64,000 nucleotides of DNA from Escherichia phage 236Ecol005PP, in sequence record PP434423.1. One strand, 5' to 3'. The notes under the pieces were generated by a model. It did not search any database. It saw only the letters and a list, made by a program, of their open reading frames with translations, and was not told where the DNA came from. Positions within the stretch are counted from its first letter, which is position 1; each line of letters starts with the position of its first letter. Positions 2,148 to 19,075 of this stretch are shown in pieces. Both the position numbers and the translations under genes were made by a program.

Positions 2148-3152
2148 TTAACTTACCAATTCAATCCAAGCCGGACGAAGTACATCTTGTACCATTTTAA
2201 CTAATTCCTTTTTAATCAAAGAAGGATTATCCGCTTGAGTTAGAGTAATACCTTCACGAGAAGTTTCTTCCAAAATATCTTGAACAGTTAGCCCCATCAC
2301 CTTTCCAAAATCCTTTGGACCAATTTCGCCAATTTTAGAAATAACGTTATTTACTCGGTTCAGTGTAACGTAGCAAGCTAAAATTCCCAGCAATTTATTA
2401 TCAGCTTCTGACAGCTCAACTTTAGCTTTAATAGGCTTATCAGACTTTTTCTTTTCGCTAAATTTAGAGTTCTTGCATTTAATAGCTACACGATTGCCAT
2501 TAGGCATCCAAGAAGGATAACAAGGTTTCAATACATATCCTTCAGCAGTAAATACTTCGCCTTTTGCTTCGGCATTCCAAACGCATTTATTTGCATCAAC
2601 TAATCCAGCATGGTCTACTGTAAAATTATAATCCTGGACGACAGAATCTAAATCATTTGGCAATTTAATAAGTTCTTCAAATTTACCACGACCCAAAAGT
2701 GGAGCCGTTTTAAATTTGAATGTATTACAGAATGATTCCATCATATAATCATCGACATAAGTCACATCACCACTTTCTGTAGTAACAATAATGTCAAATA
2801 CATAAAAATCTTTATCACCATAATCGACATTCTTCTGAATGCCAGGTCCAGCGAATTCGCCAAAAACTTGATAAGATACAACTGCTGAAGTTTCCATAAT
2901 ATCTTGCACTGCTTTAATGGAATCAGCGTAATTCTTTAAAATAATTTCATACCCAAAGAAATCTTCAGCAGGAAGAATCGGTCCAGTACGTTTAGCACAA
3001 GTTGCTTTATCGCGTTCAATAATCAGTGAGAAATTTGTGCCATGAATCTTTTCACGAGCTACCCATTCGCCGTCAGTCAATCCTAAACTGTAAAGTTTTT
3101 CAATGAATTTAGAATTGTAATGATTTTCAAGACTGCTATACTTTTTAAACAT
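2148..3152 (-). CDS. rnlB: RNA ligase 2 (Rnl2)
   Basis: 334-aa ORF, N-terminal nucleotidyltransferase lysine motif (KIHGTN), T4 Rnl2 length and position. Confidence 0.9.
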
Positions 3153-3161
3153 AATTAATCC

Positions 3162-3440
3162 TCAAAATGTAATTTCTAACCAATCACCATCACGCTGATC
3201 ACTATTGACTTTAAAGCTAAATCCTTCTTTTCTCAGCCAATCACCAATTTCTTCAGTAATCAATTTATCGCGAGCGATACAATAATAACTAAAATATGTT
3301 TTACCTTGTTCAGCTGCTTTATTGGCAAGTTCCGAAAAATCTTTAATAAAACACTCTAGCTTAAACTGTTTACTTTTTAATGCTTTTTCGCGTAGTTGAT
3401 TAGCAAAAGATTCATTTTCATAAAGATCATACTGTTCCAT
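3162..3440 (-). CDS. 24.2: hypothetical protein (T4 24.2 position)
   Basis: 92-aa ORF in T4 synteny. Confidence 0.6.
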   Translation of the reverse strand: MEQYDLYENESFANQLREKALKSKQFKLECFIKDFSELANKAAEQGKTYFSYYCIARDKLITEEIGDWLRKEGFSFKVNSDQRDGDWLEITF

Positions 3441-3636
3441 TTTTCACCTTTTTATTGATATGTCTTTTTCTATAGACGACTTTTTCTCGAGTTTCAAATT
3501 TATTCTTAGCAGTCATAGCTCGAGCCCATAATACAGCCACTTCTTTCGCCTGTAAGTTCAATTCACGAGCAATTTCAATGAATGACTTTCCAGACTCATG
3601 AAGAGTAAACACCACAACCTCAGTTCTCATAATCAA
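3427..3636 (-). CDS. 24.3: hypothetical small DNA-binding-like protein (T4 24.3 position)
   Basis: 69-aa ORF; ORF-track start appears to be TTG, true start may be internal ATG at about 3630. Confidence 0.5.
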   Translation of the reverse strand: MIMRTEVVVFTLHESGKSFIEIARELNLQAKEVAVLWARAMTAKNKFETREKVVYRKRHINKKVKNGTV

Positions 3637-3729: not shown

Positions 3730-4860
3730 TTATGGATAAGTATAGATGATACCAGTTTCTAAAGCAGTTTTATGAATGATGTATCCATTACGTGATTCTT
3801 GAACATCAACTTCTGGATAATCTTGAATCATCTTCTGAAGAGTGTAACGATGCAGGTAATATTTACTATCTGGGTCGTCAGTTTTCCAATCTTTACCTTC
3901 TTCGGTCATTTTTTGGATTTCATCCATAACCCACCAACCGCACCAGATATAAGCTGAAGTACGGTGTGGAAGAGGATGAACATAAGGCAATTCACCTTCT
4001 GGTTCCGGAGCAACTTTATCAGTCACTTGAACTTGACCTTCTGCTGTAATAGTTTTGCTATCATAATCAGTAGCAGTAACAGTAGCAGTAACTTCAATGG
4101 TTTGACTTCCAACAGATGAGGTATCAACGGTATATACATTAGTTGACCCTTCTACAGGAGAAGAATCTTTCTTCCATGAATAAGTAATTTGCGCTTCTTC
4201 TGGAGCATCAGTAACATTAGCAGTAAATGTAGCCGAAGCATCTTGTTGAACGTTAATAGAAGGAGGAGTCAATGTAACCTGTGGATTCATTGTCTTCTTA
4301 TTAACCGTTAATGATACTTCATTAGAAGTAACGCTTAGTGCATCATAATCTGTCGCGGTTACTTGAGCTACACACTTGATTTTTTTAACTCCGCTTGTGG
4401 TAGGAGTGTAATTGAATGTAGCGCTAGTTGCTTCGTCCACAGGAGAATCATCTACATACCACTGATACGTAGCAGATGCTCCATCAGGTTGAGAAGCTAA
4501 GGCAGCAGTAAATTGAACTGGGGTTCCGATTACTCCAGCGTCAGGGCTATCAGGAGTTACTGCTAAGGTGGTCGTTTGTGTCTTATTTTTAACCGTGATA
4601 GTCGTAGTAATTTCTGCTGTTTCGGGACTACTATCGGCAACTTGATTTGTTGCAACAACTTTAATTGTTTTTGTTCCAGCAGGTCCTTTTAATACATAAT
4701 TAAAAGTTGCTTCAGCTCCATCTTGTGGAACATTATCTACGCTCCAAGCATATGTAATAGGTCCATCTCCAGTTTGACCACTGGGTGTAGCAGTAAACTG
4801 CTGAGTCTGATCTATAACTCCAGTAGGTGTTTTAGGAGTTATATCAACTGTAAAAGCCAT
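3730..4860 (-). CDS. hoc: Hoc, highly immunogenic outer capsid protein (Ig-like repeats)
   Basis: 376-aa ORF with repeated Ig-like segments and conserved C-terminal capsid-binding region. Confidence 0.9.
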   Translation of the reverse strand: MAFTVDITPKTPTGVIDQTQQFTATPSGQTGDGPITYAWSVDNVPQDGAEATFNYVLKGPAGTKTIKVVATNQVADSSPETAEITTTITVKNKTQTTTLAVTPDSPDAGVIGTPVQFTAALASQPDGASATYQWYVDDSPVDEATSATFNYTPTTSGVKKIKCVAQVTATDYDALSVTSNEVSLTVNKKTMNPQVTLTPPSINVQQDASATFTANVTDAPEEAQITYSWKKDSSPVEGSTNVYTVDTSSVGSQTIEVTATVTATDYDSKTITAEGQVQVTDKVAPEPEGELPYVHPLPHRTSAYIWCGWWVMDEIQKMTEEGKDWKTDDPDSKYYLHRYTLQKMIQDYPEVDVQESRNGYIIHKTALETGIIYTYP

Positions 4861-4869
4861 AAGTTATCC

Positions 4870-5550
4870 TTATTTTAATGTTACGAAAGAAGAATTGCGT
4901 GTTTCACGAATTAGAACTGATCCGTCGCGATTAATATAATAAATTAAGCTAAATAAAGTTTGGTGTGCCGACGCATGTTCAAAACTAGTTGGGTGAGATT
5001 TCCAATCCGGAGTTTCAGCTATCCATTGATAAATCCACCAAGGAACAGTGCAGAATCCTGGATTTTTTCCAATCAGCTGAAGATTCGGGCTAAAGTTTTC
5101 CGGAAGAGTAAATACAGACGGCTTTTCAGATTCAATAATCTCAGCTACAGCTTGCTCGAATTTTTCTTCAACAAAAGGAGTATCTTCAATCAAAACATCG
5201 GTATTTTCGGGAATTTTATCCGTTTCGACTACTTCAATTTTAATGTCAGATTTAACCGGAGAATCAATCAGAAGTGCTGCTTCTGGATTGACTTCTTCAT
5301 CGTCATATTTTAATCCCTCTGCGGCATCAGCAGCATTGATTAAGTCTTTAATAGATAACCCATCAGTCTCTGGCATAGGTTCACTAGCGAGCTTCTGGAG
5401 GGCTTCTTCAATATCAACAACGATATTATCAAAAGATTTATTCTTTTTGACCTTTATACCAAACTGTTCAGCGTATTCAGCTAATTTAGCTTTAGCTTCT
5501 TTATTATCATCAAGAGCCTTCAGCTCTGCAATATAATCTTTATCTATCAT
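4870..5550 (-). CDS. inh: Inh, inhibitor of prohead protease
   Basis: 226-aa acidic protein, T4 Inh length and synteny. Confidence 0.8.
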   Translation of the reverse strand: MIDKDYIAELKALDDNKEAKAKLAEYAEQFGIKVKKNKSFDNIVVDIEEALQKLASEPMPETDGLSIKDLINAADAAEGLKYDDEEVNPEAALLIDSPVKSDIKIEVVETDKIPENTDVLIEDTPFVEEKFEQAVAEIIESEKPSVFTLPENFSPNLQLIGKNPGFCTVPWWIYQWIAETPDWKSHPTSFEHASAHQTLFSLIYYINRDGSVLIRETRNSSFVTLK

Positions 5551-5563
5551 AATATTTCCTCAG

Positions 5564-5571
5564 TATAAATA
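5564..5571 (+). promoter_or_regulatory. late promoter TATAAATA upstream of segD
   Basis: exact TATAAATA 29 nt upstream of segD ATG. Confidence 0.5.
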
Positions 5572-5599
5572 TAGATATATTTATTACTCGGAAAATAGT

Positions 5600-6217
5600 A
5601 TGTACCACTTTGTATATGAAACGACAAATCTAATAAATGGTAAAAAGTATATAGGAAAACACTCTACTGATGACTTGAATGATGGCTACCTTGGTTCCGG
5701 TAAAGCAATTCAGCAGGCTATAAAGAAATATGGTGAAAAGAATTTCTCTAGAACAATACTAAAAGAGTTTAAAACTTCCGAAGAAGCGTACATGTATGAA
5801 GAAGAAATTATAACTCCTGAACTAATAAAAAGCAAAAATTATTATAATATGAAACCTGGTGGAATTGGTGGAATTGTTATGACTGCAGAGGTTATAGCAA
5901 AGATGAAAGAATCTTCCGCTAAGAGATTTGAAAACTCACCGGGCACGGTATTAGGTACAACTTGTTACACCAATGGAACTAAAAATATTTTTATTAAACC
6001 TGGAGAACTTGTTCCAGAAGGATTTGTAAAAGGGATGGTTCATCTTAATAGAAAGTCCAGAAAAGGATGTAAAGTCAAACCGACTACCACAGGAACTTTT
6101 TGGGTCAATAATGGAGCAATAAATAAATTAATACAACCAGACGGTATTATTCCCGACGGATTTATTAAAGGTCGTCTCATGAAAAGAGACTCTAAAGGCA
6201 AATTTAGTAAGGCATAA
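5600..6217 (+). CDS. segD: GIY-YIG homing endonuclease SegD
   Basis: N-terminal GIY-YIG-type motif (VYETTNLINGKKYIGKH), C-terminal repeated PEGFVKG/PDGFIKG DNA-binding motifs. Confidence 0.75.
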   Translation: MYHFVYETTNLINGKKYIGKHSTDDLNDGYLGSGKAIQQAIKKYGEKNFSRTILKEFKTSEEAYMYEEEIITPELIKSKNYYNMKPGGIGGIVMTAEVIAKMKESSAKRFENSPGTVLGTTCYTNGTKNIFIKPGELVPEGFVKGMVHLNRKSRKGCKVKPTTTGTFWVNNGAINKLIQPDGIIPDGFIKGRLMKRDSKGKFSKA

Positions 6218-6219
6218 TT

Positions 6220-7728
6220 ATGGATATTAAAGTACATTTTCACGACTTCAGTCATGTACGCATCGATTGTGAAGAGAGCACGTTCCACGAATTAAGAGAT
6301 TTCTTTTCGTTTGAGGCCGATGGATATAGGTTTAATCCTCGCTTCAGATATGGCAACTGGGATGGACGAATCCGTCTTTTAGATTATAATCGCCTTCTTC
6401 CATTTGGCTTAGTCGGGCAAATTAAAAAGTTCTGTGATAACTTTGGCTATAAAGCCTGGATTGACCCGCAGATTAACGAAAAAGAAGAATTATCAAGAAA
6501 AGATTTTGATGAATGGCTTTCTAAATTAGAAATCTATTCAGGAAATAAAAGAATTGAACCACACTGGTATCAAAAAGATGCAGTGTTCGAAGGATTAGTT
6601 AATCGTCGTAGAATTCTTAATCTTCCAACATCCGCAGGTAAATCTTTAATTCAAGCTTTGCTTGCTCGATATTATTTGGAAAATTATGAAGGTAAAATTC
6701 TTATCATTGTTCCAACAACTGCTCTGACAACTCAGATGGCTGATGACTTTGTTGACTATCGTTTATTCAGTCATGCAATGATAAAGAAAATCGGTGGTGG
6801 AGCATCAAAAGATGATAAATATAAAAATGATGCACCGGTCGTTGTTGGTACATGGCAAACTGTAGTAAAACAACCGAAAGAATGGTTCTCACAGTTTGGA
6901 ATGATGATGAATGATGAATGCCATCTTGCTACAGGAAAAAGTATTTCATCTATCATATCAGGTTTAAATAACTGCATGTTTAAATTTGGTTTGTCCGGTT
7001 CATTGCGTGATGGCAAAGCTAATATCATGCAGTATGTTGGAATGTTTGGTGAAATATTTAAGCCAGTAACGACTTCTAAATTAATGGAAGATGGACAAGT
7101 AACTGAGTTAAAAATTAATAGTATTTTTCTTCGCTATCCCGATGAGTTCACTACTAAATTAAAGGGAAAAACTTACCAAGAAGAAATAAAAATTATTACT
7201 GGGCTCAGTAAAAGAAATAAATGGATCGCTAAATTAGCTATTAAGCTTGCGCAAAAAGATGAAAACGCTTTTGTCATGTTTAAGCATGTATCACATGGTA
7301 AAGCTATTTTCGATTTAATTAAAAATGAATACGATAAAGTTTATTACGTATCAGGGGAAGTTGATACCGAAACCCGCAATATAATGAAAACCTTAGCTGA
7401 AAACGGTAAAGGAATAATTATAGTAGCTAGTTATGGTGTATTTTCTACTGGTATTTCAGTTAAAAATCTGCATCACGTTGTTTTAGCGCACGGTGTTAAA
7501 TCTAAAATTATTGTATTGCAAACAATAGGTCGCGTATTACGTAAGCATGGTTCTAAAACAATCGCAACGGTCTGGGACCTCATAGATGATTGTGGCGTCA
7601 AGCCAAAATCTGCTAATACGAAAAAGAAATATGTTCATTTGAACTATCTTTTAAAACACGGCATTGATCGTATTCAGCGCTACGCAGATGAAAAATTTAA
7701 TTACGTAATGAAAACAGTTAATTTATAA
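6220..7728 (+). CDS. uvsW: UvsW RNA-DNA/DNA-DNA helicase
   Basis: 502-aa SF2 helicase with Walker A (PTSAGKS) and DEAH-like motifs. Confidence 0.9.
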   Translation: MDIKVHFHDFSHVRIDCEESTFHELRDFFSFEADGYRFNPRFRYGNWDGRIRLLDYNRLLPFGLVGQIKKFCDNFGYKAWIDPQINEKEELSRKDFDEWLSKLEIYSGNKRIEPHWYQKDAVFEGLVNRRRILNLPTSAGKSLIQALLARYYLENYEGKILIIVPTTALTTQMADDFVDYRLFSHAMIKKIGGGASKDDKYKNDAPVVVGTWQTVVKQPKEWFSQFGMMMNDECHLATGKSISSIISGLNNCMFKFGLSGSLRDGKANIMQYVGMFGEIFKPVTTSKLMEDGQVTELKINSIFLRYPDEFTTKLKGKTYQEEIKIITGLSKRNKWIAKLAIKLAQKDENAFVMFKHVSHGKAIFDLIKNEYDKVYYVSGEVDTETRNIMKTLAENGKGIIIVASYGVFSTGISVKNLHHVVLAHGVKSKIIVLQTIGRVLRKHGSKTIATVWDLIDDCGVKPKSANTKKKYVHLNYLLKHGIDRIQRYADEKFNYVMKTVNL

Positions 7729-15290: not shown

Positions 15291-16255
15291 TGTATTCTTT
15301 AGAGGAATTTAATAATCAAGCAATAAACGCAGATTTCCAACGTAATAATATGTTTAGCTGCGTTTTTGCGACAACTCCATCAACTAAAAGCTCTTCGTTG
15401 ATAAGTTCAATTAGCAACTTTTCTTATAATAACTTGGGCCTAAATTCAAATTGGTTAGGATTAACTCAAGGTGATATTAATCAGGGAATTACCACGCTAA
15501 TTACAGCTGGCACACAAAAACTAATAAGAAAATCAGGAGTCAGTAAATATCTCATTGGTGCCATGAGTCAACGTACTGTCCAGAGTTTATTAGGCTCATT
15601 TACAGTTGGTACATATTTAATTGACTTCTTTAACATGGCATATAACTCATCTGGATTGATGATATACTCTGTAAAAATGCCAGAGAATAGATTATCCTAT
15701 GAAACTGACTGGAACTATAATTCTCCTAATATTCGTATAACTGGGAGAGAATTAGACCCTTTGGTTATTTCATTTAGAATGGATTCAGAAGCTTGTAACT
15801 ATCGTGCAATGCAAGACTGGGTTAACGCTGTTCAAGACCCAGTAACTGGATTGCGTGCTTTGCCACAAGATGTCGAGGCAGATATTCAGGTTAATCTTCA
15901 TTCTCGCAATGGATTGCCTCATACTGCGGTGATGTTCACCGGATGCATTCCAATATCAGTGAGCGCTCCTGAGCTATCATATGATGGAGATAACCAAATA
16001 ACTACATTTGATGTTACTTTTGCGTACAGAGTGATGCAGGCTGGAGCAGTTGATAGGCAAGCTGCGCTTGAATGGCTTGAATCTGCTGCTATAAATGGTA
16101 TTCAAAGCGTTCTCGGAAATAGTGGAGGTGTTACTGGACTATCTAATTCGCTTTCACGACTTAGTAGATTAGGAGGAACTGCGGGAAGCATTTCAAACAT
16201 TAATACTATGACGGGAATTGTCAACTCGCAAAGTAAAATATTAGGAGCAATATAA
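15290..16255 (+). CDS. 54: baseplate-tail tube initiator gp54
   Basis: 321-aa ORF, synteny. Confidence 0.9.
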   Translation: MYSLEEFNNQAINADFQRNNMFSCVFATTPSTKSSSLISSISNFSYNNLGLNSNWLGLTQGDINQGITTLITAGTQKLIRKSGVSKYLIGAMSQRTVQSLLGSFTVGTYLIDFFNMAYNSSGLMIYSVKMPENRLSYETDWNYNSPNIRITGRELDPLVISFRMDSEACNYRAMQDWVNAVQDPVTGLRALPQDVEADIQVNLHSRNGLPHTAVMFTGCIPISVSAPELSYDGDNQITTFDVTFAYRVMQAGAVDRQAALEWLESAAINGIQSVLGNSGGVTGLSNSLSRLSRLGGTAGSISNINTMTGIVNSQSKILGAI

Positions 16256-16257
16256 CA

Positions 16258-16286
16258 ATGGGGACCTTTCGGTCCCCATATTTTTA
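16258..16286. terminator. hairpin terminator between convergent genes 54 and alt.-3
   Basis: GGGGACC-TTTC-GGTCCCC followed by T-run. Confidence 0.6.
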
Positions 16287-16574
16287 TTTACGGAATGAAA
16301 TAAAAGCAGCAACTGAAGCAACTAAACTGTCTTCAATATAAACTTCAATTTTTACCGGAGCTTCTGACTCAAATTTACCTGTTACTACACCTTGGAAAAT
16401 ACTTTCAGTCTGTTCTGGCTTTGAAAAATTTTCAGAAGGAAAAATTCCGAACTTTTTATCTGTTCCAAAAATTTTGATAAATTCATCATAAACTGCTTCA
16501 TTAAAAGCATTATCAGCAGGAATAACGCCTTCAACTACAAGTTCTTGACCTAAAAAGCGCAAAGAAGATTTCAT
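16284..16574 (-). CDS. alt.-3: hypothetical protein (T4 alt.-3 position)
   Basis: 96-aa ORF downstream of an early-type promoter. Confidence 0.55.
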   Translation of the reverse strand: MKSSLRFLGQELVVEGVIPADNAFNEAVYDEFIKIFGTDKKFGIFPSENFSKPEQTESIFQGVVTGKFESEAPVKIEVYIEDSLVASVAAFISFRK

Positions 16575-16582
16575 TTTGTGTT

Positions 16583-16635
16583 CCTCATGTTATGTCAGTA
16601 AGATTACTATAACACAACATGAGGGACTTGTAAAC
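16583..16635 (-). promoter_or_regulatory. T4-type early promoter (GTTTACA, 17 nt, TATAGT) with leader hairpin
   Basis: sequence motif; near-identical copy at 30438-30490 upstream of alc. Confidence 0.55.
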
Positions 16636-16810
16636 TACATTTTGAACTTTTTAGTACGCGTAATAGGCATGCGTCGATTTTATACTGTTTCATTGTTTGA
16701 AGAGCAGTATCAAAAACAGCATTAATGACACCAATTGGATTTCCGCCCAAGTTTTTAAGCTTAACTAATGATAGTTTCTCATTAACACCTATCATTACGA
16801 TATGCATCAT
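16607..16810 (-). CDS. alt.-2: truncated Alt-like fragment (matches Alt residues about 64-120)
   Basis: 67-aa ORF with clear similarity to the alt N-terminal region of this same window. Confidence 0.55.
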   Translation of the reverse strand: MMHIVMIGVNEKLSLVKLKNLGGNPIGVINAVFDTALQTMKQYKIDACLLRVLKSSKCSLQVPHVVL

Positions 16811-16992
16811 TTTATCGCCCGGCTTAACGTTTTATTCGTATCACCGCCAGAGGTGTATGTACAAAATCTAAATCCAGGAAGCACACTTTCTTCACCGGCT
16901 TGAATAGCAAAAATTTGAGGTATTTTATGCTTAGGATTTAAGTTAACAACCGGCGCCGAAGCGCCGTCAAATAATTCTGTAATAAGTTCCAT
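16807..16992 (-). CDS. alt.-1: truncated Alt-like fragment (matches Alt residues about 2-57)
   Basis: 61-aa ORF beginning MELITELFD, the same N-terminus as alt. Confidence 0.55.
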   Translation of the reverse strand: MELITELFDGASAPVVNLNPKHKIPQIFAIQAGEESVLPGFRFCTYTSGGDTNKTLSRAIK

Positions 16993-16995
16993 GAT

Positions 16996-19044
16996 TTATC
17001 CTTGAACGAACTTGTAAGGCATGTTTGCAATATCTATGCAAGACGCAATAATTCCAAGAGATGATTCTGCTTTCTGTTTAACATTTGATGAAACAAACGA
17101 TGCAAAGTCAACTCTATCTTCTATATCACCTGTCATTGTAACCAATTCACCAGTTTCCATTAAACGGTCACCGTCATAAATTACCGATTCGGTGAGTTCT
17201 TCTGTGGTCATAACTTCAGCTTGAATAAGCTTGTTGTTAGTTCTAACTGTTCCATCGTTGTAAGATGCATCAGTTATTTTATTAACTTTGACCATTAATC
17301 CACGTGGCAAAATGACTTCCATTTCATTTGAAGGCGCTAAACTTCCACCGGGTAAAACAACATTGACTTTATCAGCCCCAGTAATAACCCATCCAATTCC
17401 AACTAAATTATCGCTAGAATTTACAAGTCCTTCATCAGTTTTATCAATAGAAACACTTAAACGCTTTTCGTCTGGTAAAACACCCACAGATGAATCAGTC
17501 ATCCAAGTACCAAAAATATTTGGATATAATGATGTTGACACAAAGTTTCTAAAATAAAAAACTCGATTTTTTACCATTGCTTCGTATATTGAAGGTAACA
17601 TTCGTTGTGAACGATACAAAGTAATACCTTTTGGTAATCGTTCACCATTTTTAAAGGCTGAATCTAAATTATCAATGGCTTGTTCTATTTCAGGTGCTGT
17701 TAAAATACTTGTACGCTCATCTGGATTATATAATCCCAAAAGAGCATTATTCATGTCTACATATCCTGAACCTACATATTCACGAATTCCGCGTTTTTGC
17801 GCTGGTGTGTATTTAGATGAATCTTTATTTTCGACTATAGGATGTAATGACCATCCAGCGGTAAGAGCATATCCACGTAATTCTCTTCGAATAATCTTTG
17901 TTTTTATTGCATTCCAAGAATTTTGTACTAACTCATTTGCAGCATCTTGGTTTAAATGCGAATGTCTGTTAATATTTCTTTCAAACCAAGCACCTTTATA
18001 TTTTTCTAAAGTATCATCGACGATAGAAGCAATAGTTTCTAAAGTTTTTATTGAAGTAATAGATTCTTTTCGTAATTTTTCTAAAGCTTTATTTTTTATT
18101 TCTGCATTAATAATGGATTCTTTATCTTCAGGAATTATAGAAGCTTCTCTGAATGCCATCCCAGCTGTAACACTGCTAAGAGCATTCTCTAATGCAAATC
18201 CTGAAGTAGAAATAACAGTTAATTCGTTAGCATCAGAAATTAAAGGCGCGTCGGCGGGTTTATTTAATTCTGCTGCTGAAGCCTCAAATTTTTGAAACAT
18301 TGGTGTTTCAAATCTAGAAGATTCCAATGACTGACTTTGTGCAATTGCTCTACGGGAAATTTTAACTTTAACAATAACAGCTTGGTCAGAACGTTTATCA
18401 TTTTCTTGCGCAATAGATGCAGCAATTGCCTCATTTTTAGTTACTTGAGCTCCAGTATCTTTATTGATATAAACATCACCGACCTTCGATTCAACTTTAG
18501 TAAAGAGCTCGGTGCTAATTTCCGGAACTCCTGGAATGTCTTCTAGTGATACATTTTTGCGATGTATAAGAATATATGCATACTTTTTATCGTAATCCCA
18601 GAGTTCCTTAAGAAGGACGTATCTGCCACCTGAACGACTGCGGATAAGTCTATCAGCAATAACTTGAATTTGTCGAGCTTGACCAGCAGTTTTAGACTTA
18701 AGAATACGAAGCATGCAGGCATCAATTTTATACTGACGCATCGTTTGCATCGCAACAGTAAAAACTGAATTGATGTAATTAATTGGGCTTGGACCGAGAC
18801 CTTTTAATTTAGCAATTGAACCTTTAGCAGTTAATGTAAAAGGAACGATGTGCATCATTTTATCGCCCATCTTTAAATCACGGTTAGTATCACCTCCAGA
18901 TGTATAAGTACATAAACGAAAGCCTGGTTGTTCTATTGCGTCATCAACATGAACTGAAAAAATTTGTGGTATTTTCTTCTTTGGATACAAATTTGTAATC
19001 GGAAGAGTAGTATTTTCGTCAAATAATTCTGTAATAAGTTCCAT
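16996..19044 (-). CDS. alt: Alt ADP-ribosyltransferase (packaged into capsid)
   Basis: 682/683-aa ORF; second ATG at 19044 has better RBS spacing; T4 Alt length. Confidence 0.9.
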   Translation of the reverse strand: MELITELFDENTTLPITNLYPKKKIPQIFSVHVDDAIEQPGFRLCTYTSGGDTNRDLKMGDKMMHIVPFTLTAKGSIAKLKGLGPSPINYINSVFTVAMQTMRQYKIDACMLRILKSKTAGQARQIQVIADRLIRSRSGGRYVLLKELWDYDKKYAYILIHRKNVSLEDIPGVPEISTELFTKVESKVGDVYINKDTGAQVTKNEAIAASIAQENDKRSDQAVIVKVKISRRAIAQSQSLESSRFETPMFQKFEASAAELNKPADAPLISDANELTVISTSGFALENALSSVTAGMAFREASIIPEDKESIINAEIKNKALEKLRKESITSIKTLETIASIVDDTLEKYKGAWFERNINRHSHLNQDAANELVQNSWNAIKTKIIRRELRGYALTAGWSLHPIVENKDSSKYTPAQKRGIREYVGSGYVDMNNALLGLYNPDERTSILTAPEIEQAIDNLDSAFKNGERLPKGITLYRSQRMLPSIYEAMVKNRVFYFRNFVSTSLYPNIFGTWMTDSSVGVLPDEKRLSVSIDKTDEGLVNSSDNLVGIGWVITGADKVNVVLPGGSLAPSNEMEVILPRGLMVKVNKITDASYNDGTVRTNNKLIQAEVMTTEELTESVIYDGDRLMETGELVTMTGDIEDRVDFASFVSSNVKQKAESSLGIIASCIDIANMPYKFVQG

Positions 19045-19067
19045 CATATCCTCTCTAGTGTTTATTC

Positions 19068-19075
19068 TATTTATA
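19068..19075 (-). promoter_or_regulatory. late promoter TATAAATA for alt
   Basis: exact motif on minus strand about 21 nt upstream of alt start. Confidence 0.55.

Follow-up and report, generated by a model that had tools for sequence, protein, structure and literature searches.

What are the two very short reading frames that lie between alt and alt.-3 in phage T4 and in the phage studied here? T4 annotation calls them alt.-1 and alt.-2, and in Nolan et al. 2006 (PMC1524935), the only publication that a literature search on the pair returned, they are listed as paralogous duplications of alt. A GenBank note on the equivalent frame in phage fPS-2 goes further, calling it “similar to N-terminal of ... 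Alt; putative pseudogene.” The remnant is therefore already known, from the literature and from GenBank annotations, and what we add here is a mechanism and a polarity: in the literature searched, we found no statement of an origin through deletion between 9-bp repeats plus a frameshift in an A run. We argue that the stretch from 16607 to 16992, on the minus strand, is very probably a remnant, no longer functional, of a second gene for a full-length Alt-like ADP-ribosyltransferase.

The 64,000 nucleotides that we analyzed (“the window,” from Escherichia phage 236Ecol005PP, record PP434423.1) are a segment of a Tequatrovirus (T4-like) genome; in a search of phage records, the nearest record over the region is Escherichia phage Pu-Krd-SF4 (99.9%), with T4 at ~97%. 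Along the minus strand come DNA ligase (gene 30), alt.1, alt, ORF1, ORF2, alt.-3, a bidirectional terminator, and then, converging, baseplate gene 54. The parts of the locus that the argument needs are these, and because the name alt.-2 is used both for a short T4 frame and for a full-length gene in phage RB32, we call the former ORF2 and the latter full-length alt.-2.

16996 to 19047, minus strand: alt, intact gene of the packaged ADP-ribosyltransferase (open reading frame of 683 aa from the first ATG; T4 annotation)
19068 to 19075, minus strand: T4-type late promoter motif TATAAATA, directly upstream of alt (pattern search)
16807 to 16992, minus strand: ORF1, the T4 alt.-1, 61 aa (BLASTP, T4 annotation, phrog_23015, phrog_802)
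16830 to 16833, minus strand: frameshift site, an A4 run (alignments, haplotype tables)
16607 to 16810, minus strand: ORF2, the T4 alt.-2, 67 aa (BLASTP, T4 annotation, phrog_15247, phrog_802)
16646 to 16654, minus strand: deletion junction, where the 9-bp direct repeat CTAAAAAGT survives as one copy (comparison with RB32)
16635 to 16637, minus strand: old stop codon TAG of full-length alt.-2, now out of frame in ORF2 (comparison with RB32, aaa atg tag)
16606 to 16634, minus strand: early-type promoter of alt.-3, with TTTACA, a 17-nt spacer and a TG-extended TATAGT (promoter search, RB32)
16284 to 16574, minus strand: alt.-3, 96 aa, DUF5498 (Pfam PF17602, E 1.4e-64)

The product of alt carries the Pfam domain PF03496 (ADPrib_exo_Tox) at residues 375-615 (E 1.3e-33). 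An in-frame ATG (19045-19047) stands one codon upstream of the start annotated in T4, so that the window reads MMELITE... where T4 has MELITE....

The original prediction, that two short frames on either side of a frame change together resemble the beginning of Alt, describes the locus correctly. Both frames are present, both on the minus strand, and aligned with full-length Alt they are similar far above chance: by BLASTP, ORF1 matches Alt residues 2-58 (61% identity, E 6e-23) and ORF2 matches residues 64-118 (62% identity, E 1e-21). PHROG profiles give the same picture, ORF1 corresponding to positions 2-59 (E 8e-19) and ORF2 to positions 64-120 (E 8e-20) of phrog_802, the Alt-like family, in addition to the individual families phrog_23015 and phrog_15247; no Pfam domain was found in either, the catalytic ADPrib_exo_Tox (PF03496) included. 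The frame change is seen twice over, as an ATGA in which the TGA stop of ORF1 and the ATG of ORF2 overlap and as a single-base gap in DNA alignments.

Which gene, however, is it the beginning of? In RB32, the place directly after alt is occupied by a second alt gene, annotated alt.-2, of 685 aa (L002, the fetched RB32 locus, 4606-6663; equivalents in L025-L030), with the note “apparent insertion in alt.-2; similar to alt.” The same two-gene tandem arrangement is found in T2 (where the full-length equivalent has been given no gene name), Shfl2, PYPS2T, PE37, G4498, OE5505 and NBG2. Aligned with the first 348 nt of RB32 alt.-2, the remnant shows 95.4% DNA identity and one 1-nt gap; over the same span, its identity to the 5′ end of alt is only 66.0%. 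The remnant is thus not a partial copy of alt but the 5′ stump of a second alt paralog, old, distinct and originally full-length. A comparison among T-even genomes, which the original prediction had proposed, locates that paralog at the same position in most Tequatrovirus genomes. A search of 50,697 phage records returned 495-501 Tequatrovirus records that match the region; in only 90 of 495 does the match span the whole remnant, and in ~400 it is broken at window position 16646, with two full-length Alt-like genes annotated in tandem. (We used GenBank phage records for this purpose because a locus search in IMG/VR gave 11 loci only, 7 of them distant Alt homologs.)

Position 16646 lies at the deletion junction. 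RB32 has the 9-mer CTAAAAAGT twice, first at codons 114-116 of alt.-2 and then, 1699 bp farther on, shortly before its stop codon (L002 positions 4945 and 6644). The window and T4 have it once, flanked on one side by the 5′ context and on the other by the 3′ context, and the sequence downstream of the junction is the 3′ end of full-length alt.-2 and the region that follows it. What is missing between the direct repeats is 1699 bp, out of frame, and with it codons 117-685, including the whole catalytic domain. Because 1699 is 3 x 566 + 1, the frame is shifted, the old TAG is read through, and ORF2 gains 12 codons. A deletion of this kind, bounded by short direct repeats, is what slipped mispairing or illegitimate recombination classically leaves behind. 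The polarity is from long to short: the long form lost sequence to become the short one and did not itself arise by an “insertion,” as the RB32 note has it. The frameshift in the A run and further independent lesions came afterward.

The second lesion is smaller. At codon 54-55, all 10 of the intact full-length alt.-2 genes that we examined have a run of five A residues in GAATAAAAACG, whereas the window has four in GAATAAAACG, and the loss of one A from the A5 run divides the 116-codon stump into ORF1 and ORF2. ORF1 consists of codons 1-53 of the former full-length alt.-2, followed by eight out-of-frame codons and the TGA stop; it starts 3 nt past the stop of alt and has an AAGGA Shine-Dalgarno-like sequence upstream. 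ORF2 carries the ancestral codons 62-116 in their original frame and then the 12 new codons (SKCSLQVPHVVL) owed to the out-of-frame deletion.

These features are shared, almost letter for letter, with T4. Its alt.-1 and alt.-2 (UniProt P39495 and P39494; CDS 3106-3291 and 3288-3491 in the T4 locus, L001) lie likewise between alt and alt.-3, have the same lengths (61 and 67 aa), the same ATGA overlap, the same A4 run and the same deletion junction, and the remnant DNA is 98.3% identical, differing in a few point changes only. The full-length Alt.-2 of RB32, T2, Shfl2, PYPS2T and others (phrog_802, PF03496), also named Alt-like RNA polymerase ADP-ribosyltransferase, has in common with the window its first 116 codons, which are orthologous (95% DNA identity), its place after alt and the alt.-3 promoter downstream; it differs in being a protein of 683-685 aa with ADPrib_exo_Tox, where the window lacks codons 117-685 and carries a frameshift.

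We compared 17 deletion-type loci (the window and 16 phages) with 10 full-length genes, scoring the A4/A5 state on these 27 fetched loci (a BLAST count over all records was dropped, since polymorphisms lie too near the run). Every one of the 10 full-length genes encodes an uninterrupted 683-685 aa, reads GAA at codon 6 and has A5. Of the deletion-type loci, seven combine that GAA with A4, the window and T4 included; another seven, HY03 among them, have a TAA stop at codon 6 and A4; and three (fPS-2, FL12 and SG1) have the TAA stop and A5. The A4 state is accordingly present in 14 of the 17 deletion-type genomes and in none of the 10 full-length genes. With a query able to seed on the TAA allele only, that allele turned up in 45 database records, and the 10 that we examined were all of the deletion type. 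In HY03 (L019, about 1216-1229), there is also a 7-bp tandem duplication, AGAAACT, inside the equivalent of ORF2; the record leaves the remnant without annotation and annotates alt only as a 645-nt fragment. Among the loci examined, these extra lesions, the codon-6 stop and the 7-bp duplication, are confined to the deletion type. Complete loss of the remnant was seen in none of the 17, and ORF2 is uninterrupted in 16.

The point variants lean the same way. Variants private to the remnants comprise seven non-synonymous changes and one stop vs. four synonymous changes; those private to the full-length genes, 0 non-synonymous vs. 17 synonymous; and those common to both, 1 vs. 17. Set against all other variants (1 vs. 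34), the remnant-private variants (8 vs. 4) give a Fisher p of 1.3e-5, a value to be read in the knowledge that these are variant sites in 23 related, recombining sequences and not independent events, so that counts from so small a set give a direction and not an estimate of rate.

Three marks of a pseudogene are here: an intact ortholog at the same position, disabling lesions and relaxed constraint (the last in a small sample of recombining sequences). The history that we favor runs as follows. In the lineage of T4 and this phage, 1699 bp were lost between the 9-bp repeats, with a shift of frame, and the loss of one A from the A5 run divided the stump into what T4 annotation calls alt.-1 and alt.-2. 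Slipped mispairing or illegitimate recombination between the repeats presumably caused the deletion, and transcription of the stump would since have been passive, as part of the alt late mRNA and of read-through transcripts. Translation of ORF1 may persist because its ribosome-binding site is kept. Neither product would be under selection, and the sequence would be drifting toward loss. ORF1 and ORF2 are best annotated as one pseudogene. Of the suggestion that this is a decaying duplicate, the decay stands, on the large deletion and the frameshift, on the nonsense codon and 7-bp duplication of relatives, and on the relaxed constraint. Of the suggestion that the alt N-terminus was copied in tandem and truncated, the tandem position survives and the derivation from alt does not. 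For anyone in need of one, the locus is a clean textbook example of short-direct-repeat deletion followed by stepwise decay.

Must a broken gene be a silent one? There are features here that a skeptic of pseudogenes could hold against us: ORF1 has a good Shine-Dalgarno-like sequence, an ATG and a gp21-type cleavage motif, LITE, and ORF2 starts in an ATGA overlap of the kind typical of translational coupling, so that peptides could be made in T4 and this phage. Might ORF1 and ORF2, then, encode functional small proteins, for example an Alt.-1 that enters the prohead core by way of the Alt N-terminal propeptide and serves there as a packaged peptide or as a competitor for Alt packaging sites? 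We consider this very unlikely, and the considerations on both sides are worth setting out. T4 Alt is a mono-ADP-ribosyltransferase packaged at about 40 copies per head. It has a short N-terminal propeptide and a C-terminal one that are cut off by the gp21 protease (PMC9026906). Its N-terminal 118 residues are ~61% identical to the remnant, a likeness that includes MELITELFD and the propeptide cleavage context: ORF1 begins MELITE-LFD as Alt does, and LITE fits the gp21 motif L/I-x-E (PMC9026906). ORF1 thus has the kind of motif found in gp21-processed head proteins, whose short N-terminal propeptides are cut after glutamate; an example of an Alt.-1 peptide would be LFDGASAPVVNLNPK. Alt, however, is intact and functional, whereas the remnant belongs to a different, older paralog and has no catalytic domain. 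Capsid targeting, moreover, has been demonstrated for a 10-residue propeptide only in IPIII (PMC9026906), and ORF1 is disrupted in half its carriers. Since no mapped packaging signal of Alt was found in the literature searched, the premise itself is conjectural.

Expression cuts both ways. A late promoter motif lies upstream of alt, itself a late gene (PMC9697503), and a search of the minus strand from alt down to 16279 turned up nothing resembling a terminator, so the remnant should be carried on alt transcripts. RNA of both frames has indeed been detected in a T4 time course, where alt.-1 and alt.-2 are assigned the RNA class “middle” and the protein class NA (PMC9697503, supplement file 4); the neighbors alt.1 and alt.-3 do have protein classes there (PMC9697503). 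The NA class fits products of alt.-1 and alt.-2 that are untranslated or unstable, although proteomics easily misses small proteins and the class therefore weighs little. In favor of function one may also count the separate PHROG family of each frame. Against it stand the TAA that cuts ORF1 short at codon 6 (10 of the 17 deletion-type loci, 45 records), the frameshifting 7-bp duplication in ORF2 of HY03, and private variants that are non-synonymous or nonsense in eight cases and synonymous in four, when those of intact genes are 0 vs. 17.

We find no support for the suggestion that the locus is a source of small packaged peptides. Beyond the codon-6 stop and the NA class in T4 (PMC9697503), the stump retains only 116 of the ~240 N-terminal residues that are conserved between Alt and Alt.-2 (a boundary judged from that conservation only). 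It ends in the middle of this block, and what it would supply is not a complete conserved module. As for a solved structure over the N-terminal region of Alt, none was found, the weak CdtA-type matches being to the catalytic domain only. The packaging idea can be entertained, with small probability, for T4 and this phage alone. In its full form, with Alt.-1 made late from alt mRNA, brought into the prohead core by its Alt-type N-terminus, clipped by gp21 and then acting either as a small packaged or ejected peptide or as a competitor that sets the copy number of Alt, we think it quite improbable.

A recent partial tandem duplication of the 5′ end of alt, later decayed, is how the original prediction framed the locus, and a position directly after alt together with ~61% protein identity to the Alt N-terminus makes the idea a natural one. 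We regard it as refuted, and hence as very unlikely, by the DNA identities (66% with alt, 95% with full-length alt.-2 at its 5′ end) and by the sequence after the junction, which is the 3′ end of full-length alt.-2 and what lies downstream; the missing segment is, besides, flanked by repeats.

Nor is there much room for recoding, in which ribosomes (by a programmed -1 frameshift) or the transcribing polymerase (by slippage) would join the two frames at the A run into a product of ~128 aa. The frame of ORF2 is open for eight codons before its ATG, and slippage in the P site is conceivable at the A-AAA-TGA that ends ORF1. Read directly, however, the overlap (16810-16836) shows A-AAA in front of TGA but nothing that fits a canonical X XXY YYZ heptamer, and a run of four is short for slippage. 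The A5 relatives, in which the frames are already joined, have the codon-6 stop, and even when joined, the frames would yield a product with no catalytic domain and only half of the conserved N-terminal block. For want of a slippery heptamer and in view of that stop, we have rejected a programmed frameshift, which is extremely unlikely. An error of sequencing or assembly as the source of the frame break is scarcely credible and was rejected also, for although an A run is a typical place for such errors, A4 recurs in 14 of the 17 deletion-type genomes, which were sequenced independently and include T4, and in 0 of 10 full-length genes, and the large deletion is independent of the state of the run.

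A gene remnant, then, is what we take 16607-16992 to be, and it is fair to ask who should care. For the window itself, the consequence is small: this is an ordinary, recognized remnant and not a new gene. For T4, the reference phage, it is larger, because T4 has lost a fourth ADP-ribosyltransferase, Alt.-2, that stood in tandem with alt, and about four-fifths of the matching Tequatrovirus records (those of T2 and RB32 included) keep alt.-2, apparently intact and under purifying selection. It follows that work on T4 alone (that is, on Alt, ModA and ModB) may leave out part of the enzyme set with which typical T-even phages take over their hosts.

The more interesting object is accordingly the intact Alt.-2 enzyme of most relatives, which lies outside the window. 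Over its whole length, RB32 Alt.-2 shares 41% identity with Alt, and PF03496 lies at its residues 416-620; by eye, full-length Alt.-2 also has R...STS...ExE-like motifs (TLYRGQ, FVSTSL and EAEVILP). Because of this domain, these motifs and the solely synonymous private variation in the 5′ region, full-length Alt.-2 is probably a functional fourth ADP-ribosyltransferase; no publication characterizing it was found in the literature searched. Identity between Alt and Alt.-2 is 60-76% over the first ~240 residues, the conserved N-terminal block. When the product of window 16996-19047 is set against that of L002 4606-6663, it falls to ~20% in mid-protein (roughly residues 250-450) and returns to ~40-50% in parts of the catalytic domain. 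Such a pattern suggests a common N-terminal module joined to a diverged central region, the latter possibly for target recognition.

Some observations concern the neighborhood. The tail and stop codon of ORF2 overlap the promoter of alt.-3, the end of ORF2 falling inside the -10 hexamer; no other site in the region resembles a promoter as closely (10 of 12 matches, with TG), and its sequence is ancestral and intergenic, RB32 having the same one after its alt.-2 stop. The T4 early promoter consensus has been given as GTTTAC (PMC1524935). The gene that it would serve, alt.-3, is an intact downstream neighbor outside the remnant, a full-length DUF5498 member with an early-type promoter of its own, and in T4 its RNA and its protein are both classed as early (PMC9697503). 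Between alt.-3 and baseplate gene 54, there is a strong, bidirectional terminator-like hairpin (16258-16279; nine pairs, six of them G-C), and terminators are annotated at the matching place in fPS-2, e11/2 and G4498. No RNA element was found in 16200-17100, where an Rfam scan gave two matches far below gathering scores.

Finally, phage ECML-134 (L017 1460-3520) has a single hybrid alt gene of 686 aa, in which residues 1 to ~150 are of Alt type (100% to RB32 Alt) and the remainder is of Alt.-2 type (97-100%). It looks like the product of unequal recombination between the tandem paralogs within the conserved N-terminal block. Counting it, no fewer than three arrangements of the locus exist: the tandem pair of genes, the single hybrid, and alt followed by the remnant.
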